NCBI GenBank assembly: GCA_044892505.1
Contig: CM097883.1
Span: 424,514,001 to 424,578,000 of the forward strand
Source of the DNA: Schmidtea nova
Taxonomy: Eukaryota
DNA length: 64,000 nt
Direction of reading: 5' to 3'
Position numbers and translations under genes: made by a program. The notes under the pieces are model-generated. The model was not told the DNA's origin and made no database searches. It worked only from the letters and a program-made list of their open reading frames with translations. Of the stretch, positions 28,505 to 56,100 are shown in pieces. Position 1 is the first letter of the stretch. Each line of letters opens with the position of its first letter.

Positions 28505-29188
28505 TTATTTATTTTTTTCTAGGGTTTCTTTTTTGGGACTTTCTTGAACGAAAGTAGATTTCTCTTCTTGTTCGGAAATCTCTTTAGCATTTGAAATCAA
28601 CTCCAATGCTGTTTGATTCAACTTTATACTATTTCTAAAATTAACACTGCTTTGACTATCCTGAGAAGTCTGAGGATATTTCTTAAAAGACATCCGTTTG
28701 GCGAGAATATGATTAATGACAGTTCCGTCTTCAATTTCATCATTCACTTGACTTTGAATTGGCTTCATGTTAATAACACATTCAAAGATATCTTGTTCTT
28801 TCGACCATTTTCCAGATTTGAACATATAGTCAGTTGCCAACGAAACAACTATGATGGAAATTAAAGAAACGATCATTGAAAAGGTTTTGTAGGGAAATAG
28901 TTGAATCTTTTGTTCTTTGTCATAGTATGGAAATTTGATCAAGGCTGGAAACCCAATGGAGCTTTCACCTGCTGATAGTCGAAACAAAAATCCGATAACA
29001 TAACCGGTTAATGAACCGTATGTATTTGATCGGTCCAGATATACAACACACACTAGCTGGGGGAAAATAATGACATATACCAAATCGGAACACAGATACC
29101 AAAGTTCATAAATTGATTTGATTTTAATTCCCATTAGGCATGCAAGAGCACCAATAAAAAATACACTTATTCTCATGATCCATATTAT
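28505..29188 (-). CDS. SLC5A7: High-affinity choline transporter (SLC5A7/CHT1-like), last coding exon
   Basis: IIWIMRISVFF...LWYLCSDLVYVIIFPQLVCV...SNTYGSLTGYVIGFLFRLSAGE...FPYKT; acceptor TTCAG at 29189-29193, phase 0. Confidence 0.9.
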   Translation of the reverse strand: MIWIMRISVFFIGALACLMGIKIKSIYELWYLCSDLVYVIIFPQLVCVVYLDRSNTYGSLTGYVIGFLFRLSAGESSIGFPALIKFPYYDKEQKIQLFPYKTFSMIVSLISIIVVSLATDYMFKSGKWSKEQDIFECVINMKPIQSQVNDEIEDGTVINHILAKRMSFKKYPQTSQDSQSSVNFRNSIKLNQTALELISNAKEISEQEEKSTFVQESPKKETLEKNK

Positions 29189-34772: not shown

Positions 34773-36888
34773 TAAAGATCATCTATCGGTAAAAACCTTT
34801 ACCGTTTACCGGTAAATTGCACATTTTTTACGTTACCGTTTACCGGTAAAAATATTTACCATTTTACCGGTAATGCGGTAATTGTACAAAATAGAAAAGA
34901 GCGTACAAAAAAATAAGAATTGAAAACCAAAAGACACGACAGAACAATTGAAAAAAGAATTTTTTCCGTCATAAAAAAACATAATAGAGAGAATAACGTT
35001 ACTTTTTTATTTTAAATAAAGAAGAGTAGGCTAGCAGCATTTTAAATTATTTTAAATAAAAGAGAGTAAGCTGTGCTGCTAGACTACTCTTTTTTATTTA
35101 AAATAAAAATGTAGCGTTAGTCTCTCTATTATGTTTTTTTTATGACGGAAAAATTTGTTTTGTCAATTGTTCTGTCTTGTCTTGTCTGATTTGTGGTGTG
35201 ATCGTGATTAAAAAAATTAATATTGGTTTTTAACATTAATAATATATCGTAATACATAGAATAAAAGCATACAATAGTTCGTAAGTAATATAATTTTTAT
35301 CTATGATTTATTATTAAAAGAAATTTATATTAAAAGAAAATAAATATTTTTTAATAAATAGAATATTGTTTAAACAGAATATGGGTTCTTCAAATGTTTG
35401 GGAGCATTTTGAAAAGCGAAAAGATAGTAATAAAGAAGCTATATGCAAATTATGTAAAAATCTATTAAATGTGATGGTGGTTCCACAAGTGGAATGATTT
35501 CGCACCTTAAACTTGTACATAAAATTCTAATAAAAAAAGCAGCTGATAATGATGCAGGTCCTAGTACTTCTGCCTCTACATTTAACACGTTGACGGACAG
35601 TATTAAAATTACAGCATTAAAATTACTTGAACTTGACGGCTATAGACGCAACTGTCCGTCAACGTGTTAAAAAGGAGAAATTATTAATATCCAGCTATTT
35701 ACAACGTGAAACTTTAGAAGAGATTGTGTCTAGACTAATTGCTTTAGATGGTTTCTCTCATTATGGCGTTACAAATTCGTCTTTTATTCGCCAAAGTATA
35801 AATAAACTAGGATACAAGCTGCCAAAAAATTCAACGGGCACGATGGAATTGGTAAAAAATGATTACGAAAAAATCAAAATAGAAATTGTAGAACGATTAC
35901 AGTACAAAATTTTGATTGGAAAACGATTTTCGCTGTCTGTAGATGAATGGACAAGCATCAAAAATAGAAGATATTGCAATATTATTTTATATGATAACAA
36001 TGAAAATTACAATCTTGGTTTAGCAAGAATAACTGGAAAATGCGATGCAAAAAATATCCAGGAAATAATAAGAAAACGATTAAATGAGTTCAAGGTAGAT
36101 TTTGATCATCATATTTTATGTTCAATCAACGATGGTGCAGCAGTAATGCAAAAATATAATAGAGAAAGTCTAGTTGAACCGGTATTATGCTTAAACCATG
36201 CATTACATTTATCAGTGACAGTTTTTATACCAAAAATATGTTGCTGTTGATGAAACTGATCAGAGTTCAATTGAAAATGAGGAAGACATTTTTTTAGAAG
36301 AGGAATATGACAGTGACGCTGATATTGATGATGGTGATTCGGTTGAACCAGATGACCAGATGGTAATTGAGAAGATAAACGAGGCAATTGGTAATGGTGT
36401 ATATAGTCATTCAATTTTTTTCATTCAATTGCAAGCCTTACGCAGCGTCATTAAATATTTTCGATTATCGTCATTAAAAAATGATTTTTTACAAGAGAAG
36501 ATAAAAACCCGACTTGGCAAAGAACTGGAATTAAAAATAGATATAAAGACACGTTGGAATTCCATAGATCCCATGATAGAAAGATATTTACAAGTAAAAG
36601 AAGAAGTAAAAGAAGCCTTAGAATATTTTAATTCTCTTCATTTATTAGCTCCAATAGACGAGAAATATTTGATAAACATCCAAAACATTTTAGAGCCAGT
36701 ACGAATAGCCGCAGAAGCCTTAGCAAGAAATGATGCTACACTATTTACCGCGGAAAGTGTAATTGAATTGTTATGTTCAACTTTGGAAAAAATAGCGATT
36801 CACCAATATCCTCTAACTTCTTAGTTTGTTTGAAAAGAGAAATTAATAAAAGACGTAATATTAAATTATTGTCTCTTGTACAGTATAT
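34773..36888 (+). mobile_element. hAT transposon (BED-finger transposase pseudogene 35381-36888) interrupted by the LTR element
   Basis: TTTACCGGTAA subterminal repeats; VWEHF...CKLC...STSGMISHLKLVH; FSLSVDEWTS; DGAAVM; CLNHALHL; KTRWNS; frame KRRNIKLLSLVQY ends abruptly at the LTR. Confidence 0.85.
34930..35185. repeat. Foldback/MITE with ~100-bp inverted arms
   Basis: TTCCGTCATAAAAAAACATAATAGAGAGA...GAGTAG.CTAGCAGCA and reverse complement. Confidence 0.65.
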
Positions 36889-37450
36889 TGCTGGGATTAT
36901 GGGTGGGTTTTAAGTAATTCAAATAAATAGTTAATCATTAATTGAACGACTATTGATGAGTACGTATACTAGGGATTCCACGCCCATAACCATACATAAC
37001 ATGACTACTACACGCGTATGCCCTTGACTATTCCCTACTAGCCAAGTTGGTACTGCATACGGTGGTGGAAAAATGATGGGCAGGTGAGCTTTGTTGCCAA
37101 AACTACTCCCCATTTATCTTCCCTCGGGTCCTTGCTGCCGATAGAAGGTCTTACGCATTTACATTCTATGGATGTTCGCTTCCTACTGAATTTTATACTA
37201 CACATCCTTATGATCTATCACACGCTTTTCCCCAATTTCACTATCCTTAACTGATCTACAAGGTAATTAATCAGCTCCTACGTAGAAACGGTCGGTTTGA
37301 GAAAAATGCGGCTGCGATTTTTTACTTCTAGGATTTAGCTATTGTTATTTTATTTTATTTAGTGAATTCACACGATGAGAGAAAAATTTTACACAGTAAT
37401 ACTTTTATTAAAATAATAAAGACAGGTTGTTATTTTACATTGAGGTTTTC

Positions 37451-38035
37451 CTATTCAAACTCCAGGCTAATCTCCTGGATTAACTCTGCTTCGGTTAAGG
37501 AGTTCAGGTGGTGGATTTGTTCGTCCAGGCGCTTTGCAAATTCTCGGCGACGACGGCGCTGTCGCGATCCCATTCGATGTTTTCGAAGCTGTTGGTTTAT
37601 GACCGGTGCTGACGCTATTATTCTCGGGGGATCACTGAGAAAAATAGGCAAATCTTCCGTTGTAAGAGTGGGTGCCATGATGATATCATCTTCTGTCCCG
37701 CAAGCGACATCTTGGTGAGTGCATTGTATCCAGCGCTGAGCCGTGATCGGCCGGATTAGCGCTCGCAATTCGGAGTCGATGTAACTTCTTGTTACTGCGT
37801 TCAGGCAATTTCGGAGTTCCCGCTGGACGGCATCTAGTTCCAATTTGGTTGCGGCCAGTGCTTCCTGCATCCGCTCAAGTTTTTTCGACTGGTCCTTCAT
37901 TTGTCCGGGCGAGAACCACTTCGCCCTTAATTCATCATTGGCGACCGTGAGTCGCTTGATCTGTCGCTGCTGGTCCCTCAACTTCCTTTCTTGGATTTGT
38001 CCCATGATTTTCTTGGAATTTTCTGTAGTCGGCAT
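37451..38035 (-). CDS. LTR-encoded 194-aa protein, N-terminal coiled coil, unknown function
   Basis: Open 194 codons, identical translation in both LTRs, AG acceptor 5 nt before ATG, AATAAA cluster ~100 nt downstream. Confidence 0.65.
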   Translation of the reverse strand: MPTTENSKKIMGQIQERKLRDQQRQIKRLTVANDELRAKWFSPGQMKDQSKKLERMQEALAATKLELDAVQRELRNCLNAVTRSYIDSELRALIRPITAQRWIQCTHQDVACGTEDDIIMAPTLTTEDLPIFLSDPPRIIASAPVINQQLRKHRMGSRQRRRRREFAKRLDEQIHHLNSLTEAELIQEISLEFE

Positions 38036-38353
38036 GTTGTCTGAATATTATAACGATAAATTCGCTGGAGGACCTATCAACAATGTTATTTTATTTAGTC
38101 TACTCTTTATTATTATTAAACGAGATGTATACTAATGTTTTTAATTATCGAGTTCTTTACAAAAATATTTAACTATCTAACCATTGAAGACTCAAAAGAT
38201 TTATTGAACTAATTTTGTATTAATAAATGAATTTCCTAATGACTATAACAACTACAATACTAAATCTACATGACAACACTATTAACAAAATGAGACACTT
38301 CAGACTTCTTTAAAACATTTATTAAATTCAAAAATAGGTGGCCATTTATTCAA

Positions 38354-38830
38354 TTATCCATCTCCGGTCGTTTTTCCCCGATACGAAAATATCGATTTAA
38401 TTTGCAAATTTGTGTGGATTCCCGTGCTATTGGACGAGGCTTGCTGGAAGCGGATTCTCTCAGCTTCTCGAAGGGGTCGTATGGCTGTATTGAACTTGAA
38501 CCCCAATTCCTTGAAGGTAGAGGCTGGAATGAACCCCCAATAAATGACACATTTCGGGAATCCTCCTTTGTCCAACATCAGGATGAACCAGGCGGCGTGC
38601 CATGATTCGAATTCCTCGTCTGGAATGATTGGCCAACTAGCGCATCCCCGGTACCATACGTGGTGCCGTGGATGGTCCCATACTGTAAATGGACAGGCGG
38701 TTTCGAGCTCTCGGCGCCATGCCCACATCTTTTGATGGATTTGCTGTAAAATCTCGAAAGGAGCCGGCTTTAATGGGCTAACTCGGGCTCGTTCTTGTCG
38801 TTTTTTGATAGTGTATCTATGCTTAGTCAT
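38354..38830 (-). CDS. LTR-encoded 158-aa Trp/Cys/His-rich protein, unknown function
   Basis: Open 158 codons in a GC-richer island flanked by AT-rich spacers, AATAAA after stop, identical in both LTRs. Confidence 0.6.
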   Translation of the reverse strand: MTKHRYTIKKRQERARVSPLKPAPFEILQQIHQKMWAWRRELETACPFTVWDHPRHHVWYRGCASWPIIPDEEFESWHAAWFILMLDKGGFPKCVIYWGFIPASTFKELGFKFNTAIRPLREAERIRFQQASSNSTGIHTNLQIKSIFSYRGKTTGDG

Positions 38831-40376
38831 GATTCCAAAACGATGCTGAATTTTATAATAGTTACAATTTACATCAATAATTAATCATAGTAAATGTTAT
38901 CTCTCATCGTGATATCTTTATTATTTGCCTACCCCTTAGCTGAAATCAAGAGAAACTGTCGTTCGTTACGGTATACATTACTCTCGTATCTACTTAGCTT
39001 TATCTGTTTACGATCAATATTATAGACGGAAAAAAATGGTGATTTGTCTGCTTGGATTTTCAAAATATTGATACCTCAAAACGGAAGCTCTCTCCCGTCA
39101 TGTATCCCTAGCTTATTCGAAAAAACGCTCTTTTGTATTAAATGCGGTCGACCTAATTTTTCTAAGGTTTATTAGACGTTTATCTAGCCATTGTGCTCTG
39201 GTGAGGGTGAACAATTTGTGCCTCCTCACGGTTAAAAAAAATTCTTTCATATCTTTAAGCGTTATCAAAAAATTTTCGTCCCCTCTGTAGCTAAAATGAT
39301 CGGAAAATAATTCCCCGGATTTGTTGGGTGTCCCATGTGCAAGTCTCAACCACTACTAATAAAATTATGCTTTACTATTTATTACTTTACCGTGTGTGGA
39401 GCCCTCGAGCACCACGCCACGGACGGACACCTTGGGAACCTAAAGCTCCCAACGGCGCAAGATTAATATGATAGTTTAAATAGTTTAAATATAACATAAA
39501 TCAAAATGAGATAACTAATAAATTATAATATGATAATGACATACGAATACAACGATATCATAAACGTAAATATACCAAAAATACCTCAATTGAATTCTGA
39601 AAATTTATTGATCAAAATCGGTCTAAACGGTGATCGTCGTCGGGGCAATGTGCAATCTAATGCGAATTTTTAGTTAAAGTCTAAATTTCAGTCTAACAAA
39701 GTCTACTAAAGTCTCACTCTAGTCAAACGTCTAGTCTATCAAAGTCTGATTTTATGAAAAATCTGATCAGTATTTATACTGATCAGTCGTGTCTAGACTG
39801 ACCAATCAGGTTTGGCCAGTTTCATGGTGGTTTTTAATTATTGTTTTTGATTCTAATTAATTTTTATTTTTTAGATTGTATTCTTCCTTGGAGGTCCGGG
39901 TTTCAAAAACAATTATTCAATAACAAGTACTTTTATTTGGTTTTAATTATTATTATTTGTATTTTATTTGTTTTTAGATGTCTCCTGGGCCCGTTAATAT
40001 CTATAAATTCATTTATTTTTATTTATAGCTTGTACTTAGTTATTCTATATTTTTACTATATTATTCCTTTCTTTTAATAAATAAATATTCCCCTTTTTAC
40101 CTTATTTTTCTCTTTTTTGTTTTAATTAATCTACTTTTATTTCACTGTTCCCTCTATTTGGCTGGCCCAACATCACTCGGGGACCCCTAAAATTGCGTCC
40201 CGCAATTAATTATACATTTACACCTATATCATCATACATAAAAATTAAGCAGATAAATGTCAATTTACATATACACAAAGAATCACGTAAGGTGATAGAT
40301 TTTATACGTAAGCACAAAGTCATATTATTGTTAAATGTAAGTGGATCATACATAAAGTGAATGTAATATATCAGTT

Positions 40377-40949
40377 TTACACAAGCTCTTTGATTTCATG
40401 ATTGGTATTGGATTGGATTGGGGTTCTTTCGCTGATTGTTCGTAGTTCGTAGTGGCTTTGGATTCGGTTTAGGTGTTTTCTCATTCGCTTTTGGGTTCTG
40501 ATGTCTTGTATTGTTGTTCGATTCAGGATGACATGTTTTTGTTTTAAGATCTTCACTCGGTATGATGTTATGAGGATTGTGATCGCGATAATGGTCACGC
40601 TGAGTGCAAGGATTATTATAATTGCGATGATCCATTTTTCTTGATATTCTATCTCTGCTTGGGCTAAGCTTTTTATGGGTTCTCGACCTTCTTTTAGGGT
40701 TTTTCTGATTGTTTTCAATTTGATTCGATGTTCATATAGGACCTGTTGAAATTTTTCATCGTTTGGGTTGTCTGATGTTATCTGTTGAAGTTGGGTGATT
40801 TCTTGTGTTGCTTCGCTGATTAGTTTATCTAGTTCTTGATAGGTTTTCTCGGGTAGGGCTCGTAGCTCCTTCTCTGTGAGTTGAAGATCTTCTCTTTGTA
40901 GGGTGATTGTTATTAGGTATAGGAATATCGGTATTCTGAGCTTTTTCAT
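40377..40949 (-). CDS. 190-aa cargo membrane protein (signal-like N-terminus, coiled coil, TM)
   Basis: MKKLRIPIFLYLITITL; WIIAIIIILALSVTIIAITILIT hydrophobic span. Confidence 0.7.
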   Translation of the reverse strand: MKKLRIPIFLYLITITLQREDLQLTEKELRALPEKTYQELDKLISEATQEITQLQQITSDNPNDEKFQQVLYEHRIKLKTIRKTLKEGREPIKSLAQAEIEYQEKWIIAIIIILALSVTIIAITILITSYRVKILKQKHVILNRTTIQDIRTQKRMRKHLNRIQSHYELRTISERTPIQSNTNHEIKELV

Positions 40950-41031
40950 ACTGTTTTCTTTACAGATAGATCAATACAATTTGACACTACATTTCATACA
41001 ATTATTTACAAAATTATATTTTCCGCTTTAT

Positions 41032-42093
41032 TTACACAATCGTCTCGTTTGGTTCGTAGAAACCTTCGTCCTGAGGCTCTACTTGGTTCGTGGGGAGTGG
41101 TATCCAAACAACCCTGCTCCTCCACATTTCGACTTCATCTCGATACATGTGAGATATCTGGATCTCCTCGTCTAGCAAATATTCTAGGTAATTTGCTTGT
41201 TCTGTTAATGTTTCTATTTGTTTCTCTAATTCGATTACTTTTGTCTTTTGTTCGTCTTCTTTTATCATTTTTGTTACGGCTGCCGTTATACTTGCTTCTT
41301 TGGGTATTACTGATACTGTTACTCGTTTCTGTTTCAATTCTTCGTTTTCTTTCATCAAATTCGTTAAATTTTCCTCGTAACTTTGTTTCTCTTCCTTTAA
41401 CCTTTCCCTGGTTCTTTTTAGCTCTATTTTCTTTTGAGTAATCACCCCTTGATAACCATTTATATCTCTCTTCATCTCTTCTTCTTTCTGATTCCATATT
41501 CCGGTGAGCATAGTTTTCAGTTGTTCTTGATTAGCTAGTTCTTCTCCCATTCTTTGAACTTGATAGGTTAGTCCTTTAATTTTCTTTGCTTGTTCCCGGA
41601 TAAATTGCTGTCTCTTTGTATTCCATCTTTTATTCAACACTTCTTGGTGTATTTTCTGTTCTAACTCGTCTTTTAATTCGTCGATCTCTTTATATAATTT
41701 CCAGTCATCGCTATAAGCTGTCCTTTCTATTATTTCTCTAGCTTTTTCGTAAGATTCTTTCGCTTCTTTCTTCCAATATCTTGCTTGTTCTGTAATCGAA
41801 TACATCTTGTGTTCAGCTTCCATCTGCTGTCTGTCTCTTTCCTCTCGTCGCTCTTTCATCATTCTCTGGTAATATTCCTTTTGTTGTTGTAGCATTTTGT
41901 ATACTTCTTCTATTTTTTCTCGACTTCTTTGACTTGATCTTTCCGCTTCTTTTAATAATTCGGCTTGTCTCTCTATCTCCTCTTGCTTTCCATAATATGC
42001 ATTGACCCATATTTCAATCTGTTCTAGATGATCGCTAATCGCTTCTGCTTGATGCATCGTAATTTCCTGTAAGCATACTTCGATATTTCCCAT
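41032..42093 (-). CDS. 353-aa cargo coiled-coil protein
   Basis: Long open frame, E/K/Q-rich heptads; strong polypyrimidine-AG acceptor immediately upstream of ATG. Confidence 0.75.
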   Translation of the reverse strand: MGNIEVCLQEITMHQAEAISDHLEQIEIWVNAYYGKQEEIERQAELLKEAERSSQRSREKIEEVYKMLQQQKEYYQRMMKERREERDRQQMEAEHKMYSITEQARYWKKEAKESYEKAREIIERTAYSDDWKLYKEIDELKDELEQKIHQEVLNKRWNTKRQQFIREQAKKIKGLTYQVQRMGEELANQEQLKTMLTGIWNQKEEEMKRDINGYQGVITQKKIELKRTRERLKEEKQSYEENLTNLMKENEELKQKRVTVSVIPKEASITAAVTKMIKEDEQKTKVIELEKQIETLTEQANYLEYLLDEEIQISHMYRDEVEMWRSRVVWIPLPTNQVEPQDEGFYEPNETIV

Positions 42094-42211
42094 TGCTATA
42101 ATTACAGAGAAAAAAAAAATTTTTAATCGGTTTATATATCAGTTATTTTTGTTTATATAATAATTTTTGGGTATTTAACTGTACATATTATTTACATGAT
42201 CACTTTTCTTG

Positions 42212-43594
42212 TTACGTCAACCATCCTTTTCTATCCGCTTTCTCATTCCTTTCCATTTCTATGTATAGGGTGTCTGCATATAATCGTTCCCATAAGCTTT
42301 CTTTCGTTATAAACATCGGTTCTCCCGCTGCTAATCCACATTCTGTGGTTGGTTTCTCGCTCGTACTCGCATGTTTCTCTGTCTCAAAGAATTTTTCCAC
42401 TGGTTTTGTTACACTTCTGATTCTTATAATGACTCCTACTTTCAAGGGCCATTCTACTAGGTCGTCGTATTCTCCTTTACATAGCGAGAAAAATATTGAC
42501 ACATGTGTTCCTCGTCCTCTTCCGTCTCCATTTGGGTATAGCTTCAATCTCACTTTAGCTCCGTTTCTCCATAAATAAAATGGTGGGCTTATTACTGCTG
42601 TTTTCGTCATATTTCTGGCCTCTGTTAATTTGTTTCTAAAATCTGTCACTTTCCACACATATGGTGCGATTGGTAACTTTTCCTCGGTATCTTGGGTGAG
42701 TTTGTTGTACTGGATTTTCATTCCTTTAGCCAGTTCTTCGATAGCTTTTATCTTTTCCTCCATCTTTTCTCGTGTTAGTTCGAATTGTTCTCTGGTTTCC
42801 AACAGTAGGTTTACCATTATCTTGTGTGACTCTATTTCTCTTTCTAATTTTTTGATTGTTTGTTCGGTTTCTTTTGTTGCTTCGTTTGTCATTTCCGCAT
42901 GCTTTAGCAATGCTTCCTCCAGATGTTGTTTCATGGTTTTTTGCGTTCTTTTCTCCATACATCCCTGTTTGTTATAAGGACATTCCCTTGGTTTCTCCGT
43001 GCACACTTTCCAATGTTCTTGTAATTTTACTTCTACCGTTATCTCGCATTCGTTTGAACATATTCCTATATATTGTCTACATACTTTCTCCTCTTTTACA
43101 TTCAGGTGTTCTTCTTCGATCTTTCTCCTCGTTTCTCGAGTTCCACAATATTCGCATAGACTTTCCTCTTCTTTACATTCATCTTTGTGCTGCTCTTTAT
43201 TCTTTATAGTTATTTTTTGTTGGCATTTGTTACATTCAGTTCTCTTCTCTTCGCAGTTCTCCAGATGGTTCTCGAGATCGCGTATTTGTCCTTGCCATAT
43301 ACATGGTTGATTTATACATTCGGTTTTCGTGTTCATGATTTCTCTCTGAGTTGCTCTATCTGGTCCGGTTTCTTCGAATTTTATTTGTCCTTCTTTGCAT
43401 TCTGGACATTCTGGTGGTCTTTTCATACTTAACTCGTGTATGCATTTGGTACATACTCTGCATCCGCATAGGGTTTGTCTTGGTTTCAATATTATGTTTT
43501 TACAATTTACACAAGTGAGTCTCTGACTCCATTTCCTGTTCTCGGCTCTCAAAATTTCGATTATCCGCTCTTCGGCTTTTCCTTCTGTATTCAT
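42212..43594 (-). CDS. TRAF: Intronless TRAF-family protein (RING - TRAF zinc fingers - coiled coil - MATH)
   Basis: CVNC..PRQTLCGCRVCTKC...CPEC; CINQPCIWQG...HLENC; YVWKVTDF...ISPPFY...LKLYPNGDGRGRGTHVSIFF...GEYDDLVEWP. Confidence 0.92.
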   Translation of the reverse strand: MNTEGKAEERIIEILRAENRKWSQRLTCVNCKNIILKPRQTLCGCRVCTKCIHELSMKRPPECPECKEGQIKFEETGPDRATQREIMNTKTECINQPCIWQGQIRDLENHLENCEEKRTECNKCQQKITIKNKEQHKDECKEEESLCEYCGTRETRRKIEEEHLNVKEEKVCRQYIGICSNECEITVEVKLQEHWKVCTEKPRECPYNKQGCMEKRTQKTMKQHLEEALLKHAEMTNEATKETEQTIKKLEREIESHKIMVNLLLETREQFELTREKMEEKIKAIEELAKGMKIQYNKLTQDTEEKLPIAPYVWKVTDFRNKLTEARNMTKTAVISPPFYLWRNGAKVRLKLYPNGDGRGRGTHVSIFFSLCKGEYDDLVEWPLKVGVIIRIRSVTKPVEKFFETEKHASTSEKPTTECGLAAGEPMFITKESLWERLYADTLYIEMERNEKADRKGWLT

Positions 43595-43685
43595 TCTACA
43601 ATGATATATACACTTGATTTGTTATCTATTTTTTGATTTTTCTTGTTTTTGTTTTTACATATTTACAATTTTTCGCTTTATTTAT

Positions 43686-44042
43686 CTACGGCTCGTTTGT
43701 TGAATCTGGTTCTGGGTCATTTTCTGATCTGTTTATTGCCCAATTTGTCCATCCATCCTCTGCTTCTTCTGTCTCTCCCATTGTTAAACGGTCTATCTCT
43801 ATTGCTTGTCTCTGATTTATGTCGCTCATCACTTGATTCTCTCTGGTAAGTTGCGTTATCAATCTCTGTTGCTCCTCGATTCTGTGGAGTTGTTCAAAAC
43901 TATTATTATAACTTTCGGATAACAAATTCTGTTTCTCAATTAACTGATTTTGTAGTGAGTTGATTGTTCGTATTAACATGTCACACTGGGCTTTCCATCG
44001 CATAGCCATAGTAGTTTCTGCTATTTCTTCCTGTTCGTTCAT
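43686..44042 (-). CDS. 118-aa cargo coiled-coil protein
   Basis: Open frame between polyprotein stop and TRAF; Q/E-rich heptads. Confidence 0.6.
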   Translation of the reverse strand: MNEQEEIAETTMAMRWKAQCDMLIRTINSLQNQLIEKQNLLSESYNNSFEQLHRIEEQQRLITQLTRENQVMSDINQRQAIEIDRLTMGETEEAEDGWTNWAINRSENDPEPDSTNEP

Positions 44043-44167
44043 TTTCTAAATTATATACATTAATCGTTTTCTCGATTTCTCTTTTTATATTTTTATAATA
44101 TCGATACCCATACTATTACGATAATGCATTGTTATTTACACTATTATTTACAGTCATATCCCGCCTC

Positions 44168-47100
44168 CTATATCACCATCACTGTCTTTCCTTCGTATCG
44201 CTCTTCATCTTCTATTTGTCTCCAAAATTCTTTACCTTTCGTCCTCCTTTGGAATTCTTTCTGTACTTCTTCCGGTAATTCTATACTGTAGTTCATAATC
44301 TTTATATCTGGCCAATGTGTTATTGGTTTCTTGTTGAATACATCATATATCCATATTATTAATAATACTGTTATTACTGGAATAGTTGCTGCTAGTATTC
44401 CCAGACCAATTAGTTCTCTAACTTGTTTGTTTACGTCCATCTTCGTAATTTCACTCTGGTTAATCATTGGTCCGTATTGTCCCTTTAGTTTATTTAGTAG
44501 TTGTTCTCGTTCTTGTTGTTTTCTTTTAACTTCTTTAATTACTTCTTCCGGCGTCCATCTTGCGTAAGGGTCTATTACTACTTGTTCCGCGTCCATTTGT
44601 TTCGTTGTCTGACTTAATTCTTTAAATTCGAGTTTTCTCACTTTCCCTTTGGACGTTGAGTTTACCGGTGTGTAGTACGTTTCGCATCTTTCCTGCTGAT
44701 TTCCTAATATGTCCGTCTTTTCTACCGCACATATCTCGTATTCGCTATTGAATTTCAGATTTCTGATACTTATTTCCTCTTTTCCTTTCACGTTTCCACA
44801 GTCTCGTGGCTGTCTTTCCCTTTGTTTCTGAACTATTACCCAACATATTTCTAACGTTTTATTGTCTATTCTCCATAGTATAAGAGTTGCTGTAGTATTC
44901 TTTTCGGTTCTTATTTGTATTTCTTGGTTTTTCTGTTGTCCATTAGGTTTAAAGGTAGTGGTATACCTCGCTTTTCCTTTGTTCCGTTGTCTTCTACTTT
45001 TTCGCGTTGTCTTTCCAACTCTTGTTCTGGTGGGTGTTTTATATAATTTGCATTCCAATTCATTTACTGTTATTTTGTCGCTTTTCCTAATCAGGCATAT
45101 TTCGTACGTTTGATTGCTTTCTAATCCTTCTATTTTTATTGTGGTTGTTCCTCTGTTTGTTCGACATTGCGGCGGTGTATTCTGGTTTGTTTTCTTTTCC
45201 TGCTTCTTCCAGCATACGCCTTTGACGTCCGGTTCTATTCCGGTTAACTCTAACATTATAGTTGTTCTCCGTTTGGTGCGTTTATTTCTTCTTCCTCGTC
45301 GTATGAACTTTATTGTTTCCCCAGGTTGAAATGTTTTACAAATTGTCGTTCCTTTCTTGTGTCTTTCTTTTTCTAGTAAACATAGTTCATACGTCCTGTC
45401 TGCTTTTACTTCTGATATCTTGGTTACTTTATTTGTTTTCCTTTTCCGACTCGTCTTTATTTCGCTTACGCCAATTTCTTCGTTGCTTCTGGCCCAACAC
45501 TTTGGGTTGGTGTTTTGGGTGTCGTTCATCTCTGTTACTGCCATTGTGTCAATGTCTATCCCTTCTTCTAACCGTTTTAACATTGTTAATATGAGTGCTA
45601 AACATAGTAATTCTGTTTGGTAGGTCACTCTTTCGGTCTCGTTTGTGGTTACTCTTGCTTCGGGCCTGTCTATGGTAATTTGTATAGTTGGCGTTGTTCG
45701 TCTGTCTATTGTCTGAGGTTTCTTGTTTTTTGTTCCTTGTGTCTCTGTTCCTCTACACTTTCCTACGACATAGTCTCCTTTGGATGGCTGCTGTATTGTT
45801 ATGGTTACTTTGGGTGTTAGGTAACTTGCACATGCAATTGTCTTATGTGATCTCGGATCCTTTGGTTTCCGAACGGTGCACATTCTGTACCAAGTATCTA
45901 GCTCTAGGTCATCGATCTCTATGATTTCTTGTTCGTATTCTGAGATCTTGCAATCCATTGGACTATTTTGTCCCGATATTTTGTCCTTTTTTGACCAACA
46001 TACTCGTTCGATTCCTTTTGCGTTTCCAATTTGTATTGTCGCTCTTTCTTCACATATCATTCCTTGAGTTGGACTAATTAAGGTCATGATTACCGTTAGT
46101 AATAATAGTTCTGGTTTAAAGAATGGGTTTATTGTTTGTTTGTAGCCTGTTCTTTTTATTTCGTTTTTATTTTTATAGTTGTTGTTTCTTTGTTTCCCAA
46201 ATTCATTGTTCTTATCATTTTTCTCTGTGTCCCTTCCTTTCTCTTCACTGTCCTCTTTATCTGATAACTCATGATCCTCTGGATTTTCTCGAGTACTATC
46301 GTCGTCGTTTCCTGTATTGTCACCTCCCTTTTGGTCGTTGAAAATGTCGTCCTCGACATTAATGGCTTCTATCATTTTTTCATACGTTATGGTTGTGAGT
46401 ATACTTGCTTCGTATTCTTGTGTTTCTGCCTGCTTAGGTATTTCCTTATCGGTTAATTTACAATCTAGAATCTCTTTCTTGGCTTTTATCCAATTATTAA
46501 GGTACGTTTTCATTAGTTCTTTCCATTTGTCCGTACGTTCTGTTTCCTTTGGGTTGTTTGTGAATCGTAAATCTTTTCTTCTCATGAAGATATCTATTAT
46601 CTTTGGCCATTTGTTTATTATTAATGCACACTTTATATACAAATTTTGGCCTTGTTCCATGCACTCGTTGATCCTGAATGCTGGTTCATTGGTGTTTGGG
46701 TTCATCCAATTGAGTATTGCTTCAGTTAGTTCAGCGTTATGCATCATGGAATGTACGCTAGCTTTTTTAACTGTCCTTGTAAGGTATTCTATTTCCTCCT
46801 GATTTGTGATTGTTTTTATGAAATTTATCACCTCCCAATTGTGCGCTAACAACGCTACGTCTAGTATTGAGCTGTCTTTGTTAGTTCTTCCCATGAGTCC
46901 TGCACCTGCTTCGTACAGTTCCTGTAACACTCGGGTTTTTGTGTTCGCTCTTGCTGCGAATATCATGAGGGTATCTCCCTTTTTATCTTTCATGTTCATG
47001 TCACTTCCGCAATCTTGCATCAACCGTGCAATTTCGACTACCCTCCTATTTTTTCCTGCTCGTAAGGCTCTATGTATTGGCAATACTCCATTCTTTGTTA

Positions 47101-50100
47101 ATAAGAAAGTCACTGGCATTTCTCTTTTTATGATCATCATATCGTTTTCATTGTAAGTTCCTTCCGCATATGCGTGTACCTTTTCCACAATTGATCCGAG
47201 TATCTCCAGTGTATGTTTAGAATTTTCGAATTCTGGTAATAGTTCTTTTGCTTTGTCCTGTATCGCATCTAACCTTTCTTGATATGGTACCTCTGCGCTG
47301 AAAAGTGGTGTAACTTTCCTTTTGCTTTCTCTTTCCTTTTGACATAGGAATTGTTTGCATTTTTCGGGGTGGTTTAATATGTCTATTAGTTTGTCATACT
47401 CTTCCTCCACCGTTTTGTATTTATCTTGAAAATTGGATATATCTTTGTAAGTTATCGTCTTGGTTAGCGATTTTGCACACCATTCCCTAATTTTCCTGAA
47501 TAATGCTTCTTTTTCACTTTCGAATTTACACTCCTCTTTGTTTTTGGAAATTATGATATTTCTTCTGTCTAATAACGTTAACAGTGCTTTCTGGTCACAA
47601 ACGAATTTTAATAGGAATTGTAATAACGTGTTTTGCCCTTCACTGTATACCTCGTTTATATTTAACACCCATGTATCATTTTCGGATCTTTTCCATTTTA
47701 TTAGCTTGCGTATTGTTTTGCAGTTACCGATTTTTATTGCCTCCTTGATTATATCACCTTTGATCAGTTCGTCTATTTCCCAAGTGGCCTTCTCGATTAT
47801 TTGTTTGAGCATTATCTGATTTGAGCTCCATATTGCGTGATTCAAGACTGTTTTGTTTTCTCTATCGCGTTCCGTCCAGTTGAAATCGGCATTTATCAAA
47901 AGGTCTATTATTGCTTTATCCGATTTGTAGATGGCTGCTATCATTAATGGTGTTTCTTGTTCGCTATTCCCAAAACCAAGGTGTTGGTTTGTTTCCTTAG
48001 CGATTTTTAGAAATTCTTTTACTCTCTCTACTTCTCCCCATTTTATGGCGTTATGTAATGCTGGTTGTCCTCCTATGTCTTGTAGTGAAAGTATTTCTGG
48101 AATTTTCTCCAGTAGTTCTGAAATGACTGGTTTTGTTGGTAGTCCCCTTGCGTAATCACTAATTATCGACTGAATATCTCTTAATATATCGTCTCTGACA
48201 TGCCATTTTCCCATTATTTCTCTGGCTTTTAGTACCATTTCCTTGTTTCTTTTTTCTTGTTGATTGTTTTCTGCTTCGGTACTTTCATTGGTTGCTCTGA
48301 GCATATTCATTCTGGCTGTCTGGGATCTGGTTATTATTCGTTCTTCTGGCGCTGTGGTTATTGTTTTTGGTACTTTCTTACATCTGCATGTATTAACGTA
48401 TATTGGTCGTATCAATGGTCGATTAACAAGTTTTACCTTCACATTGTTTTCCTTTTTGTATATAACTTCGTAAGGGCCTTTTCCTGGTCGTTGTAGTTTT
48501 TTAACGGTTCCTGGTATTATTTCTGGGGTTTCTATCATTACCCAATCTCCGGGTTTAAGATCATTTGTTTTAACATTTTTCTTTTGATCGTGTAGGTCCT
48601 TGTAACTTTCTTGATAAAACTTTATGTTTAGTTCTGCTGTCTTCCATATCTCTTGCATTCGTTCTTTGAATTTGGTGACGTAATCATCTTCCTCCATATA
48701 TTGAGACAAGGGTGGTTGATATTCAAGATCTATTGGCATATTGCATTCCCTTCCATACATTAATTGAAATGGACTCAATTTTGTTGCTGCGTGTATCGAC
48801 ATTCGGTATGCCATTAGACATAGCTTTACGTATTCATCCCAATCTGTTTGGTGTTTGCTTACATAATTGGATAACATTCGAATCAATGTGCCGTTAAATC
48901 TTTCCGTTTGTCCATTGGTTTGCGGATGATATGGTGACGTTCGTAATTTAGCTATTCTGAAGTAATTTGTTACTTCATCTAGTATTTCGCTCATAAAATT
49001 TGTTCCTTGATCTGTTAGTATTTGTTTCGGGGTTCCGTATCGACAACATATTTCTTCTACTAAAATTCTTGCTACGGTCTTTGCTTTTTGATCCGGCATC
49101 GCAAATGCCTCAGGGAATTTAGTCAAATAATCCGTTATTACCAATATATATTGATTCCCGTTTAAACTTTCTGGCAATGGTCCTATTACATCCATCGCAA
49201 TGGTAGTCATTGGTTCCGCTGGTATTGGCATGGGTTTTAAGGGATTTTTCCATTTCTTCCCACTATCCTTTCTTGTGGCACATGTTAAACAGTTCTTTAT
49301 CCATTCCTTTACGTCTTCGTCCATTGTGGGCCAATAATATTTTTGTCTCATGCGATCTAATGTTTTCTTATCGGACATATGTCCTCCTAGCTTTCCGTCA
49401 TGGTATTGAGTTATTATCTCTTTTCGTCTATTACCTGGCAGACACATTAATCGTTTTTCTCCATTTTGTATTAATAACCATCCTTTTTCTATTGTGTATC
49501 GATGTTGGTATTTCCTCATGTGTTCTTTTAACTCCGCATTGTCTTTGAATACATCCATATTCCGTGAGCTTAGGAATTCTATGATGGGTCTTAGTTCTTT
49601 ATCCTCTTGCTGATCTTTCTTTAACTCGCTGAAATCCAAATCCTCTGCTATCACTATGCATATTCTTTGCACTTCTGGGTCTGTTAGTTCTGGAAACGTT
49701 AATCTTGACATGCAATCTGCGTTGGCATTCGCTTTCCCTGATTTGAATTTTATATCTGGTGAATATTCTTGTAATTGCATCGCCCATCTCATTAATCTGC
49801 TGGATGTTTCCTTATGTTGTCCTAGCCATACAAGTGGTTGATGATCCGTGGTTATGCATATAACGTGTCCCCATAATAGATATTTAAAGTGTTTTATTGC
49901 TAATATTATTGCCAATGCTTCTCTTTCCGTTACCGAATAATTCTTCTCGTGTTTCTTGAATGTTCTGCTATAATATCCGATTACCCGCTCTTTTCCCTCG
50001 TCATCATATTGTCCTAACACTGCTCCTGCTGCATATCCACTTGCGTCGGTTGCGAGTAAAAATGGCTTCTTGAAATCCGGGTGAACCAATATTGGTGCAG

Positions 50101-53100
50101 TTATTAACTTATCTCGTAATGTTTCGAAGGCTGTTTGTTGTTCGCTTCCCCATATGAACGATACGTCTTTCTTTACTAGCTCCTGGATTGGTTTTGCAAT
50201 TCCTGCGTAATCCTTTATGAATTTTCTATAGTAACCGCATAATCCGAGAAATTCTTGGATCTGCGTTATCGTCTTTGGTACTGGACATTCTTTTACTTTA
50301 TCAATGTTTCTGGGATCTGGTTCCTTTCCTTTTGCGGACACAATATGTCCTAAGAATGTCACTTTCTCCTTTGCCCAATCGCATTTCGATGGTTTGAGCT
50401 TGAGTTTCCATTGTCTCAATCTAACAAATACATCTCTGATATCTTGGATGTGTTGTTCAAATGTGCTTGAGTAGATCAGTAGGTCGTCAATGTAAACCAT
50501 GCATTGTTTTATGCCGTGGGTAACGAAATTCATACATCTTTGAAATGATGCTGGCGCATTGGTTAGTCCAAATGGCATTTTCCTAAACTGGTACAAGTCT
50601 CTTCCGATAGTGAAAGCAGTTTTCTCTTTGTCTTCCTCTTTCATTTTAATTTGCCAGTATCCGCTTTTCAAATCCAATGATGTAAAATATGCCGCTCCTT
50701 GTAATGTCAATAACATCTCGTTGATGTCCGGTAATGGGTATGTATCCCTTTTTGTAACTGCATTTAATCTCCGATAATCAATACAAAATCGTTGTGTTCC
50801 GTCTTTCTTTTTCACCATTACAACTGGGAACTGCCACGGTGAGCAGCTTGGTTCAATTACTTCTGCGTCTAGCATTTTCTGTACTTCTGCTTCTGCTACT
50901 GATTTTTGCGCTTCAGCTAACTTGTATGGTCTTAACGCAATAGGCGTTTCGTCTGTTAGTGGAATCGTATGTAGTGTGACGTCGCATGTCCCTAGATCTA
51001 AATCGGATGCTGCGAATATGTCTTTATATTCTATCAGTAATCTTTCTAGCTGTTTCTTTTGGTCCTCATTTAATAGTTGGCTATCAATGTTCCAAGTGGG
51101 TTCCTCCTCTTTTACTCCTTCTTTTATTGGTATTTCGATATCCATCATTGGAGTTAGTTTACCTAATCTTTCATTTTCATAAATTATTTTATCCTCTTCA
51201 TCGAAATTTACTACATTTATTGGGATTTCTCCGTTGTCATTCGCACTCACTAATCCCCTTGCCATTGGCAACGACTTTCTCTTTTCAAATCTTTTACTGG
51301 GTTCAAAGATCATGTCGCCTTCTATTGTAGGATCTATTTTTACGAAACATATTTTCTCTCTCCGTGCTGGTACGATTATTTGTTTCGAACTTGTTACTTT
51401 TGCTTCTATTGCGCATATCTGTCCTGTCCTATCCTTTAGTCTCATTGTTCCGAGATCAATAACTATTTCTTTAAATAATGCTGGCATCAGATCCGTGCCT
51501 ATAATGCATGGTACGCTCAGTGCTGGTATTACTGCTACGTACGTTTCGATTTCCGTGTTTTGATGTTTTATCTTTACCCACCATCTTCCGGCAACTTCTA
51601 CTACTTCTTTACTGCATGCTATTACGTGAACGTTGGTTCTCTCGATATCCCGTCTTTGTTCTTGTGGTATCCATTTTATATCTATTGCTGAGATATTTGC
51701 TCCTGTATCAATCATCGCTTCTATTTCCCTTCCGTTAATTTCGATTGTTGTAGTTAATACTGGACCGGTGTTTGATGACATTACTGCAATTGTATGTGAG
51801 TCTCCTTGCGGATCTACGCTTCTGCACCGTCTCGTTCTATAGTCTTCTGGTATCATAGGATATATGTTTGTCATCGGCATCATTTGCATTGTATTTTGTC
51901 TCATCCCTGGTGTTGGTTCTTGGTACATGGTTGGTGGGGGTGCGTAACATTTCCACATTTCCGCTGGATTCTTTTCGACATACTGTGGTACTTGATTTTT
52001 AAATACTTGACCTCCTTCGTTATCATCATCATCGTCGTCACTGGAATCGTCTTGGGTTCTGTACCCTTTCATTCTTTCCCATAGTCCTTTTCTCTCTTTC
52101 TTGAGTCGTTGTCTTGCTTGCTCGTTATTCATTATCTTTTTAAATTTTCGTCCCACCTCTTCATCGGTTCCTTTCATTTTTGCCAGTATTTTTAGGAGTC
52201 TCTTTATTCCGTGAATATCTTTTGAATGACCGTGTAATACCATTGTTTTAGCCAAAAATGGTAAGAATCCTACCACCAATTTCCAATTTACTTTCTTTTC
52301 TCTTTTATAGATGTCAAAACAGGCTAACATTTGAGTTATTATTACCCGTATTATTTGTATAATTAGTATAACACCAAGTATTCCTGCCATCATTTGTCCA
52401 AATATTAAAAATCTTCCCCACATCGCTTTCATCATGTTTTCCGTTGCCTTCTTAAAGTGGGCTGGTGACAATAATAATTCGTAATTTGGTCCACCTTGGT
52501 AATTTGTTCCTCCTGTTATTGTTACAATACTGGATAACACCGCTTCTCGTCTTGCCGGAAATAGTATGTTTTGTCTTGCTGCTTCTAAATCCTTTGCACT
52601 ATAGAATCCCATATTGCTTACATCTACGTCTTTAAATTTTCTTCCTTTTGATAGTTGCATCAATTCAAATTCCCTTGGTGCTGGTACCTCTGTTCTTGAC
52701 GGAAACATAACCCAATTCCCGTCTGGATTTTGGTATAGTGGTCCATATGCGTTGCTGCAATTGAAAGGGTTTGGTTCGAAACTTACTGGATTTATGATTC
52801 TTGTCACTGGTTGTACATATCTTACTTTCCCTTTATATTCGATTTCTAGTTCGTTAGTACACTGACCTGGTTGTAGTTTTGTCATTGTTGCCACCTTTGT
52901 GTTCGTCTTTTTACATATGTATACGTACATGACCTCTCCGACTACCCTTCCAAAATGACCTTCTCTTAATGGTAATAATGGCATTGCACTATCCGGGTTT
53001 GTGATTGCTACCGCTAGTTTTGTCTTTAATATTTCCCTATTTAATATGCAATCGTTGTTAATTAAATCGTAATACACTTTTTGTAGTGACGCTTGTCCTC

Positions 53101-56100
53101 TATGGAACAGAAAATCCATTTTATTGTTCATGTAAAGGTGTAATTTAACATCGTTCGTGTGCACTTTGCGTTTCGCACTAGGTACTTCTTGTTTTGATAC
53201 AAAAATGCCGGGGTAGTTGGTTTCCAACATAGCTACTCCGCATTTCAAGGCTGTTTTTCCTTTTACAAACCTCATTCCGATATCTGCATCTGAGGTAATT
53301 AGTACCGTTGGTGTATTTCTCATTTTAATTTGTTTTTCTTGTGTTCGGGTTTCAATCTTTTTCTCTCCCCGTACTGTGTCTTGAAGTATTTTTCCTCTTG
53401 CTGCCTCGTCTTCTTCTTCCTCTTGGAAGGTTTTCCCTTGTATCTCATCGAATTCTGCTTCCTTTAACAGTTGTAGTTGACATTCCTTTCCTCGTATCTG
53501 GTAGGTTAAGGTTGACATACCGGTTTGGCAAGTGTTTGACTCGATTTTGCACATTGGTAGGGTTTTCATTTCTCCCGTTGTTGGATCGAAGAATGCCTCG
53601 TACGTTTTTAATTCCACTGTATAAGTATCTATTACTACTAGGTTGGTTGCTGCTACTCCGAATATTGGATATGTTGCTCCTTGGCAATACCCTTCTCCTC
53701 CCGTAATAGCTCCTGCTACATAATATGTTTGTTGCAATATCACTCCCGTTTTTCCTCTTATCTTTACTCTATCTCTAGTCTCTACTTCTCCATGTTTAAA
53801 TAATTTTTCACAGTCTTCTCCTTGCAGCATTACCGATTCTCTTTCCGTTCCTGGCATCACGATTGCTGAATAATGGCGGTGTCCACAATAAAAAGCAAAT
53901 CTGGTTTTATAAACTTTGCATTCCCTGACCATTGTTCTTATCAGTTCAGCTTCCTGATATACGTGGTATAATTGTCTCTTTTTTAATGTTTTTAACTCCG
54001 TTGGGGTTGCGTCCTTACATTGTTCTGTCCCTCGTAGTGAATATTTCTCACCTAATGCCATTTGATCACAATCGAATACTTCAAATGCTGTTGCTCCGTC
54101 AGTACTAATCATCCATATTAACATCATCATAATGATAGAACTCAGGTTTAGTGATGATTTCCCGTTTCCTGTTCCCGACTTTTCCTTTTCCAATTCTCCC
54201 AATATCTCTTCGAATTTCTTTTTCAAATTTTTGGCTTGGTTTTTCTTTTGGTTCGTTTTTGTGAATGTTTCCCATCCTCCTTTACTGATGATGTACGGTT
54301 CTATTTCTTTCTCTATAATTTTGGCTGTATTCTTTATATGTCTTTCGAGTGCTGTAGGTTTCAGTCGACCTCTACTCAGTGTCAACAGATTGTAAATTGT
54401 GTATGCCATAGCTATTAAATATTTGTTATCCGTCTCTGCTCCTTCCGTTAACTTCTTTATCAACATCGTGGTTCCTTGCCAATCTAGGTGGTTTGACCTT
54501 GTCTTCTCTTTTATTAGTTCTGGTAGGATTGGTGCGATGGCGCTATGCAGTGATTTCGCCCTTTCGCTTATTTCGTTTATTCTCCACCATTTCTTTAATT
54601 CTGGATCGATTATTGCCAGTATTTCCATTAACATCTTTGATATCCATTCCTCGCCTTGGTATGTTTGTGTTGTTTCTTTTTCTTTCGTTTCGGCTATTTT
54701 ATTTAGTTTCTTTAAACACAAATCCCATTGATCCCGTCTTTTTTCCTCTCTTGATTTTATAACTACATTTGCTGGATCCATCTTGGGTCTACCTCTAGGT
54801 CGTTTATCCATTGTCGTGCCCGTTTCTACCAATCTTGTTTCTCGTCCAGTTTCTTCTGTGACGTCTCTTGGTTCATTGGCTCTTTCTTCTAACCATCTTT
54901 CCATTTCTTGTGTGAATTGTACATTTTCTACATTTGCCCTCCTTGCTTCCTCTTCTGCTATTTCATTTACTTCTTCGATGATTATTTCTTGTTCAACTTC
55001 ATCTTCGGTGTTGGTTACCGGTATTGCTGTTGGTAATTCTTGAATTCTTTCGAAAATATTATCATCCTTCTCTTTTGTTAGCTCTATTAACTCCTCTAAC
55101 ATATCATCGCTATCTGTAAAAATTTCGTCTACATCGTATGGTTCTGGTGGTGTTCTTTCTCTTGTCTCTCTTGGTGTTGTTTTAGCTTGTTCTGAGCTTG
55201 TTCCTGGAGTCATTACCGATTTCATTGGGCTCGGCGTACTCATACTTCCTTTTGGTTTCTTTTCCTCTTTCAATTTCAATGGTTGGCCTGCTATTGCTGC
55301 CACTGTCAATGTATTTGCGATATCTAATTGCGCTGGCGTTATTCCAATTTCCAAGCTGTTATCTAATGATCGTCCTTGGTGTTGTAAATGGAATGGTGGT
55401 TCATATCTCAATTTCTTTTTAATGTCTCGAACTTTCTCCGCTATCCCTACCCAAAACTCTTCCTTTTCTTGGTTCGGATATACTATTCTTAGGTGTACTT
55501 TCTGTGGCGATTCCTGCGAGAATTCTTGGTTTCTCCATTTTTTAATTACGTGATCCAATTGTTCTGGACACCACTCGTTAACTCTTTTGTATTCGGCGAT
55601 TGCTTTTGCTACTTTACGCAAGCATGTTATGTCTTCTCCATTAACTACGAAAAAATCTGCGAGACCTTTTACTACTTTTCTCTTGCCGTGCGCATTGGTT
55701 TTTAATATTTCGACAAATTCTTCCGTTTTTTGTTTCTCTCTTTCCAACCACATGGTTGCCGTTTCTGGTCCGTCTAAATCCGCTGGCATGGCTTTTCTTG
55801 TTACCATACAGACTCTTCCGGTTTCCGGTTTGTGATCGTCTTCTATGCCTATTTCATATTCTTCTTCGTACTCGCCTGCTTTTGGTTCCCAACATTTTCC
55901 TCGTTCGTTCCATTTCTTTTCTACGGGTGTTAGTAATCGTCTGTTGAGATTGAGTTCTTCTAATACATCTTCCCATTCTGGCCAAATCCGCCAATTTCGA
56001 TAAATGTCTACTATTTGTTGTAATTTATGCACAACTTCTTTTTGTCGTTCCCGTTCTCTTTTCTCATCCTTAGCAGTTTCTCTTGGTGTATCGTCCATTC

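Follow-up and report, generated by a model that had tools for sequence, protein, structure and literature searches.

A complete TRAF gene carried as cargo by a giant LTR retroelement of Schmidtea nova

The TRAF gene and the element that carries it

A 64,000-nucleotide (nt) stretch of the Schmidtea nova genome (assembly GCA_044892505.1, contig CM097883.1, positions 424,514,001 to 424,578,000; hereafter the window) contains on its minus strand, at 42212-43594, an intact gene of the TRAF family embedded in a giant Ty3/gypsy retroelement with long terminal repeats (LTRs). The gene is a single, intronless ATG-to-stop open reading frame (ORF) of 460 amino acids (aa; P0001), whose 460 open codons would arise by chance with a probability of ~7e-16 at the base composition of the element, and plus-strand frame 1 over the same interval is broken by many stops. 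Its product has the domain order of the TRAF2/3/5 type, which has five TRAF zinc fingers (ZFs): an N-terminal RING (43397-43513), five TRAF-type zinc fingers (42899-43318), a TRAF-N coiled coil (42695-42910) and, following it, a C-terminal MATH/TRAF-C domain (42239-42667), all on the minus strand. The C terminus is matched in Pfam by MATH_2 (E 2e-21) and TRAF-mep_MATH (E 1e-18), above cut-off, and aligns with the solved MATH domains of TRAF5, TRAF3 and TRAF2 at E 1e-22 to 5e-21. The Pfam zf-TRAF match (E 1.5e-4) lies under its cut-off and the RING receives no Pfam call; residues 22-121 nonetheless align with solved RING-ZF chains of TRAF2, TRAF5, TRAF6 and TRAF3 (E 5e-10 to 9e-5).

At the level of individual residues, 28/28 zinc ligands are present by sequence, with 20/20 in ZF1 to ZF5 and all eight RING positions occupied by cysteine (C28, C31, C43, C45, C48, C51, C63 and C66), yielding a C4C4 RING with CGC at residues 43-45. 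C45 aligns opposite the histidine of the CGH found in TRAF2, TRAF5 and TRAF6, so the canonical histidine of a C3HC4 RING is absent, and the substitution noticed in the initial annotation is correct. An AlphaFold2 model built from an 18-row alignment reaches a mean predicted local distance difference test (pLDDT) score of 87.3 and features a continuous helix over residues 229-300 (pLDDT 88-97 in most blocks) followed by a β-sandwich at 312-450; its predicted template modelling score of only 0.41 is what an elongated chain of several domains would be expected to give. When this model was used in a fold search of the Protein Data Bank (PDB), every one of the matches listed was a TRAF entry. Pfam, PDB, AlphaFold2 and the ligand count thus bear out the first description of this locus as an intronless 460-aa TRAF with RING, zinc fingers, coiled coil and MATH domain all intact.

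The TRAF ORF lies between two copies of a repeat, 36889-38931 and 61958-64000, which are identical over 2043/2043 nt. On the minus strand the repeat has CA as its last two letters; 6 nt inward from the 5' LTR boundary comes a primer-binding-site-like 18-mer (61934-61951, minus strand), which resembles the complement of a tRNA-Pro 3' end. The 3' LTR (36889-40172, minus strand; ~3284 nt, TGTTGGG...CCCAGCA) has its end at 36889 set by the repeat and its start at 40172 placed from the terminal inverted repeat and a putative polypurine tract (PPT) at 40173-40192 (minus strand). The 5' LTR (61958-64000, minus strand) is represented by 2043 nt in the window, with ~1.2 kb more beyond it if the deduced length holds. 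The 5' end of the element therefore falls outside the window and its full length would be ~28.4 kb, of which the internal region (40173-61957) makes up 21.8 kb. With this LTR pair in place a host gene lying outside the element is excluded, the assignment as retroelement cargo holds, and we regard it as confirmed that 42212-43594 encodes a complete TRAF carried by the element.

Relatives, proposed origin and age of the TRAF cargo

Relatives were sought among 1.84 billion representative sequences, where the nearest show 35-44% identity and P0015 (36%, E 3e-79) is the best of the full-length matches in a single stretch. Word-index searches, which did not extend to fused or longer forms, gave 12 and 18 matches with no close copy of the ORF (best 48% over a short piece), and an Atlas search returned generic eukaryotic TRAF clusters only. 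The phylogeny suggested in the initial annotation nests the ORF among cellular-type TRAFs in two trees. In the first, built from 65 hand-picked proteins out of 163, with multi-MATH and most fragmentary rows left out, the ORF groups with P0031 and P0042 (100/91) and with P0015 (96/90), inside a 19-row clade (95/91); in the second, a 42-row tree computed under a mixture model with the coiled coil removed, it again joins P0015 (97/94) within the clade (99/94).

The relatives that define this compact CGC-RING clade (P0015, P0023, P0025, P0026, P0028, P0030-33, P0036, P0038, P0040, P0042, P0044, P0067, P0081, P0083 and P0117) share with the ORF the CGC RING, an insert in zinc finger 3 and the compact length, and differ from it in sequence (26-44% identity) and, for most members, in an ordinary composition and a tyrosine or phenylalanine at the groove position discussed below. 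They probably represent expanded planarian TRAFs, a family whose growth to 121-282 MATH transcripts is reported without explanation (PMC6109357, PMC7586133, PMC8807557). Within the 19 rows, CGC is found in 15 and CGF in one, the stretch being missing in the remaining three, and the sister rows P0115, P0135 and P0150 also carry CGC. The motif is therefore older than the capture and is no mark of inactivation.

The initial annotation had proposed retro-capture from a host mRNA. Capture of a spliced transcript would indeed be the simplest origin, because the ORF is intronless and nests among cellular-type TRAFs; what has to be corrected is its timing. Adenine occupies 59% of fourfold-degenerate sites in the TRAF, 61% in the element's polyprotein and 37% in a host exon, and the relative synonymous codon usage of the TRAF correlates with that of the polyprotein at r 0.91 as against 0.46 for the host exon. 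Codon use has thus been assimilated to the element, which rules out a recent capture and indicates that the gene is old cargo, presumably kept by selection; the low identity of the nearest relatives (35-44%) likewise speaks for an ancient event. An index of the A-rich amino-acid signature, calculated over residues 20-258, is 1.58-1.99 in P0015, P0031 and P0042 as against -0.05 to 0.96 in 27 other rows of 31, which suggests, from composition, a lineage of element-borne TRAFs. A single clade of all A-rich TRAFs (the ORF, P0015 and P0067) was rejected (approximately unbiased test, p-AU 0.003), the group having been named after the tree was seen. P0067 is a second A-rich compact TRAF from a different subclade and may reflect an independent capture by another element.

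The accessory cassette, its putative RNA-processing signals and the Burro-type carrier

Read along the minus strand, the internal region encodes a 153-aa ORF with a C-terminal IAP-type RING (61219-61680; matches to XIAP/cIAP RINGs, E ~2e-11), a 4985-aa polyprotein (44168-59125) and then a cassette of four ORFs: one of 118 aa (43686-44042; no family above cut-off), the TRAF, one of 353 aa (41032-42093; coiled-coil-like by composition, no Pfam family) and one of 190 aa (40377-40949; one predicted membrane helix at 103-132, no family). No second TRAF or MATH piece was found in the window or the polyprotein among 1788 six-frame segments, and the window contains no tRNA and its 36000-64000 interval no Rfam family. 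Two further intact ORFs, of 194 aa (37451-38035) and 158 aa (38354-38830), lie inside the LTR, with copies at 62520-63104 and 63423-63899; their third-position GC content exceeds 0.5, their codon use is unlike that of the polyprotein, and neither has a family above cut-off.

The TRAF start codon is preceded by a TAG splice-acceptor-like site (43596-43598, minus strand) that ends 1 nt before it. A YAG ending 1-3 nt before the ATG is found in all five internal accessory ORFs as against 69/581 ATGs on that strand (p ~2e-5), the corresponding distance being 10 nt for the polyprotein and 15 and 5 nt for the two LTR ORFs. Downstream, the motif TGTAAATA lies 16 nt after the TRAF stop (42189-42196, minus strand) and recurs 16-22 nt after the stop in all four spacers of the 3' cassette (40950-41031, 42094-42211, 43595-43685 and 44043-44167, minus strand; 82-125 nt). 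Its general form TGTAHATA occurs at seven sites in these spacers, where shuffling gives a mean of 0.32 and 0/2000 shuffles reach seven, and 8/9 of its sites on the coding strand of the element are in or at the cassette spacers. Both sets of p-values are optimistic because the tests were made on a pattern that had already caught the eye. The motif agrees with the consensus of the Pumilio response element (UGUAHAUA); UGUA is also a 3'-end-processing signal, and two of the four spacers have AATAAA close to the stop. A candidate donor-like site, GAG/GTAAGA (60936-60941, minus strand), is located in the 5' leader upstream of gag and is one of three donor-like matches in 59126-64000. That leader, between the RING ORF and gag, also holds three distinct short tandem arrays (units of ~43, 41 and 30 nt; 60084-60764).

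The putative acceptors before five accessory ORFs, together with the Pumilio-type motifs after four stops, suggest that the cassette is expressed as processed mRNAs. Two models would fit the signals, retrovirus-like alternative cis-splicing and operon-like spliced leader (SL) trans-splicing. Schmidtea is described as having SL trans-splicing (PMC10899757), and in Macrostomum the repeat-adjusted gaps between trans-spliced genes are reported to peak near 100 bp (PMC8629364).

These observations bear on the possibility that the TRAF is a functionless passenger, a host gene, or an artefact of assembly that fused a host TRAF transcript into the element. Completely identical LTRs point either to a very recent insertion or to a collapsed assembly repeat, the latter of which would suit such an artefact, and broken relatives of the gene exist. 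Against this, codon use and strand bias of the TRAF equal those of the element, every ORF of the cassette is flanked by the same spacer motifs, the element contains no N, and the zinc ligands are conserved despite deep divergence; we therefore consider this explanation very improbable.

The polyprotein (minus strand throughout) comprises gag with three CCHC knuckles, a probable Bcl-2-like segment, a fusion glycoprotein, protease (PR), a weak dUTPase-like segment, reverse transcriptase (RT), RNase H (RH), integrase (IN), ankyrin repeats (Ank_2, E 8e-13 in Pfam) and a membrane-anchored C-terminal part. The fusion glycoprotein is of the Monjiviricetes type (PF24664, E 3e-68) and spans residues 1933-2274 (window 52304-53329), with the protease at residue 2459. 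Preceding this envelope (env) domain, the segment at 54206-54715 is a probable, not proven, Bcl-2-like domain: Pfam Bcl-2 gives E 0.11, there was no PDB sequence match and no Atlas match, and the VIA fold comparison places Bcl-2 family members in all six top ranks (Z 7.5-8.2). Between PR and RT (51056-51505), five of six weak matches are to dUTPase or dCTP deaminase (E 0.05-0.14). A ubiquitin/SUMO-like segment before Bcl-2 is indicated by a Ubiquitin_4 match (E 0.09) in one of four segments, which a second comparison did not support. At the C terminus (44168-46200), ~650 aa lie between hydrophobic segments at 4340-4358 and 4904-4931 and contain repeated Cys/Trp units which, judged by eye, resemble fibronectin type III, although Pfam gives no match. 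This part would be a further membrane protein, downstream of integrase and ankyrins. Ahead of the first ATG, another 82 codons, acidic in character, continue the reading frame without a stop (59126-59371); translation may begin at a non-ATG codon or from a spliced start.

By comparison with the published Burro descriptions rather than by sequence alignment, the element can be recognised as a giant, env-bearing Ty3/gypsy element of the Burro type. In Burro/GYPSM1, an ORF of 4873 aa encodes MATH_TRAF_C, BIR, ankyrin, BCL2-like, ubiquitin/SUMO-like and dUTPase-like domains, with env between BCL2 and PR (PMC6431247), and the family is reported from Geoplanidea and Dugesiidae (PMC13465017). Burro internal regions extend to as much as 25 kb. 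The present element shares with it a ~22 kb internal region, multi-kilobase LTRs, a single ORF of ~5000 aa with three CCHC gag knuckles, a probable BCL2-like segment followed by an in-frame, mononegavirus-like env between gag and PR, a tentative dUTPase-like segment between PR and RT, the PR-RT-RH-IN order, and ankyrin and MATH/TRAF-family cargo. It departs from Burro in having an IAP-type RING only: Pfam detects no BIR domain in the polyprotein or the seven other element ORFs, and the part of the 5' LTR outside the window has its 3' copy inside. The 153-aa RING ORF sits between the primer-binding-site-like sequence and gag and may be a reduced form of the Burro1 'B-IAP'. The cargo itself is also arranged differently. 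Burro1 bears MATH_TRAF_C inside the polyprotein and in the Dugesia tigrina Burro it belongs to an accessory ORF upstream, for which no other domains are stated (PMC6431247), whereas here a complete RING-5ZF-coiled coil-MATH gene lies downstream of pol in a four-ORF cassette. Four polyproteins of 2871-3771 aa on contigs of 12-17 kb (P0176, P0177, P0179 and P0180) follow the gag-env-PR-RT-IN order of our element and end in a membrane-type tail, and with pol regions 43-46% identical to ours they appear to be further members of this env-in-polyprotein lineage; no MATH was found in these four or in P0191, a related env-containing polyprotein.

The flanking sequence is animal DNA with 26% GC. By eye, the element appears inserted into a frameshifted hAT-like transposase remnant (35621-36888, plus strand), for both pieces of which Pfam makes no call, and a further hAT piece at 17849-18310 is confirmed by Pfam. 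A host terminal exon of a high-affinity choline transporter (SLC5A7-like, E 2e-35) lies at 28505-29263 (minus strand). At 23660-23999 (minus strand) a second IAP-type RING fragment (zf-C3HC4_3, E 3e-7) adjoins an N gap and tandem arrays (21418-23459) and is possibly part of a decayed related element, and a Pox_A32 packaging-ATPase match at 2707-3117 (plus strand; E 0.0016) suggests a Polinton/Maverick-like remnant.

Proposed function and significance

Compared with cellular TRAF2/3/5 (PDB 1ca4, 1kzz, 4gjh, 3knv and 7l3l), the element-borne protein shares domain order, the five zinc fingers, the MATH fold (TM-score 0.70-0.81 over the target), the non-TRAF6 face for E2 ubiquitin-conjugating enzymes, and the linker and ZF1 arginines; it differs in its C4C4 rather than C3HC4 RING, structural identity of 25-30%, short coiled coil, the groove residues S412 and E425, G77, the lack of introns and its location in a mobile element. 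TRAF6 is reported to bind the E2 Ubc13 through I72 and L74, mutation of which abolishes binding (PMC5702613). N30 and K32 occupy these positions in the ORF, which accordingly lacks a TRAF6-type E2 face, as do TRAF2/3/5 in the structure-chain alignment. R84 and R105 stand at the positions of TRAF6 R125 and R146, arginines that are said to contact ubiquitin in trans and to allow TRAF5 to complement TRAF6 (PMC5702613). From its residue pattern, the RING would be that of a TRAF2/3/5-like partner rather than an autonomous ligase, and it probably binds zinc yet makes a poor stand-alone Ubc13 ligase, which is why we favor a role as scaffold or heteromer partner.

The reading that we prefer, with a probability of about 0.5, is a TRAF2/3/5-type scaffold or heteromer partner of changed specificity that favors survival of the element-expressing cell. 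An ancestral element would have picked up the spliced mRNA of a host TRAF already possessing the CGC RING, after which the gene would have changed along with the element, kept in check by purifying selection. Translation would proceed from a processed RNA, formed either by joining the donor near 60941 in the leader to the acceptor that directly precedes the TRAF ATG or by trans-splicing of a spliced leader at that acceptor, and furnished with a Pumilio-type element in its 3' untranslated region. The protein is predicted to fold as a TRAF2/3/5-type adaptor, to trimerise via coiled coil and MATH domain and to mix with host TRAFs, acting as a scaffold or partner with an altered ligand groove. Along with the IAP-type RING and the Bcl-2-like domain, it could then re-tune host death and innate-immune signaling such that the cell transcribing the element survives. 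This reading draws on the IAP-RING-like and Bcl-2-like companion cargo, on the retention of 28/28 zinc ligands and an open frame despite A-rich fourfold sites, and on the place of the TRAF as an accessory gene that is enclosed by the LTR pair, with pol on one side and the PPT-like tract on the other. It is also in line with the reported effects of host TRAF knock-down in planarians (PMC7586133) and of the Burro1 IAP on stem cells (second-hand, PMC13465017), both described below.

The MATH groove and the RING-dimer position are where a pure dominant-negative decoy finds its support. Such a protein would enter host TRAF trimers via its coiled coil and pass on no signal, with RING dimerisation, E2 binding and groove all degenerate. 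The MATH domain retains K351, Y353, D357, F368 and F403, which presumably correspond to receptor-binding residues of TRAF2. The groove nevertheless has S412 where 26 of the 28 rows with that column filled have phenylalanine or tyrosine, and, in place of the cysteine of TRAF3/5, E425, a residue that none of the other rows with a full-length MATH shares. G77 stands at what we take to be the RING-dimer interface phenylalanine (TRAF6 F118), in a column that is large and hydrophobic in 22/31 rows and that adjoins a gap, making the match uncertain. The missing I72/L74 pair would also suit a decoy, although TRAF2/3/5 lack it too and still signal. A decoy needs just coiled coil and MATH, as TRAF2 RING deletions illustrate, yet here none of the 28 zinc ligands is missing and the two arginines at ubiquitin-contact positions are retained; on balance we consider a pure decoy rather unlikely. 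The choice between adaptor and decoy thus turns on E2 face, dimer position and groove and not on CGC: the motif occurs clade-wide (15/19 rows) and its cysteine can still serve as a zinc ligand, so that CGC is no evidence of a dead RING and offers no argument for a decoy.

An autonomous active E3 ubiquitin ligase or signaling activator, possibly pro-apoptotic or pro-inflammatory and aiding particle release or cell-to-cell spread, would accord with the intact RING with R84/R105 and with the fusion glycoprotein that the element encodes. [quoted passage not shown] Both proteins are TRAFs encoded by mobile elements; the viral one belongs to a large DNA virus of fish (a megalocytivirus), has fish TRAFs as its nearest relatives, is ~160 aa shorter and represents an independent capture. 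Iridovirus TRAFs rank second and seventh in a viral fold search with our TRAF. Since the E2 face is unlike that of TRAF6 and the remaining cargo resembles survival-type families, we judge an activator of this kind improbable.

A host-selected role, through mutualism or partial domestication, would have the element give stem cells extra TRAF activity, much as a second-hand account of the Burro1 RING+BIR gene (IAP; Lee et al. 2026) has it protecting stem cells from apoptosis (PMC13465017). Pumilio-type motifs would suit control in stem cells. The identical LTRs and intact polyprotein imply instead that the TRAF still travels with a recently mobile element, making host selection, too, an outside chance, albeit one compatible with the survival scaffold and not exclusive of it.

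Several points weigh against the survival scaffold and the history proposed for it. The one studied viral TRAF, ISKNV ORF111L, is described as pro-apoptotic (PMC3352826), and the Z of 7.5-8.2 for the Bcl-2-like segment is in a range that the tool calls common and comes from a model with a pLDDT of 46. S412 and E425 in the groove and G77 at the dimer position fit a decoy equally well. The A-rich index is weak in the MATH domain (0.03 for the ORF, 0.49 for P0015 and 0.12 for P0023), composition bias can itself attract rows in both trees, and the host-like or element-borne status of the relatives is judged from composition only. Finally, P0031 and P0042 are broken, each having a deletion in the N-terminal part, departing from TRAF sequence after the start of the coiled coil and lacking MATH, so that decay of the gene does occur in certain copies or lineages; their tails show no match to the neighboring element ORFs and hence no evidence of synteny. 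A search of the element's membrane-protein tails for TRAF-binding motifs (PxQx[TS]/PxQxxD) found none, the single match lying in the env ectodomain and being irrelevant.

Capture of host signaling genes is routine in large DNA viruses and rare in LTR retroelements. TRAF-family cargo in Burro is already known, and any novelty here would lie in the completeness of the gene, in its placement within a 3' cassette and in the putative RNA-processing signals around it; a limited literature search turned up no LTR element described as carrying a full-length TRAF, and such a description may exist in Grohme et al. 2018 or in Lee et al. 2026 (Dev Cell). The surprise is limited because both MATH_TRAF cargo in Burro and virus-encoded TRAFs have been published. 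A whole, presumably selected TRAF beside IAP-RING and Bcl-2-like cargo nevertheless supports the idea that such elements manipulate host cell death (PMC6431247), as reportedly shown for the Burro1 IAP. The ORF provides a second single-gene handle for knock-down in these elements, and the pattern of acceptors and Pumilio-type motifs predicts specific RNA junctions. Knock-down of a host TRAF in planarians is reported to be lethal with increased cell death (PMC7586133).

The gene further suggests how the unexplained TRAF expansion of planarians might in part be accounted for, an idea that can be tested. More speculatively, and in our estimate doubtful as a whole, an env-bearing giant retroelement lineage may long have carried a death-control kit of TRAF, IAP-type RING and Bcl-2-like domain, with its accessory genes arranged as an SL-resolved, host-style operon under Pumilio control in stem cells. 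An appreciable part of the TRAF expansion reported for planarians would then be borne by or derived from such elements and would not consist of ordinary host genes.

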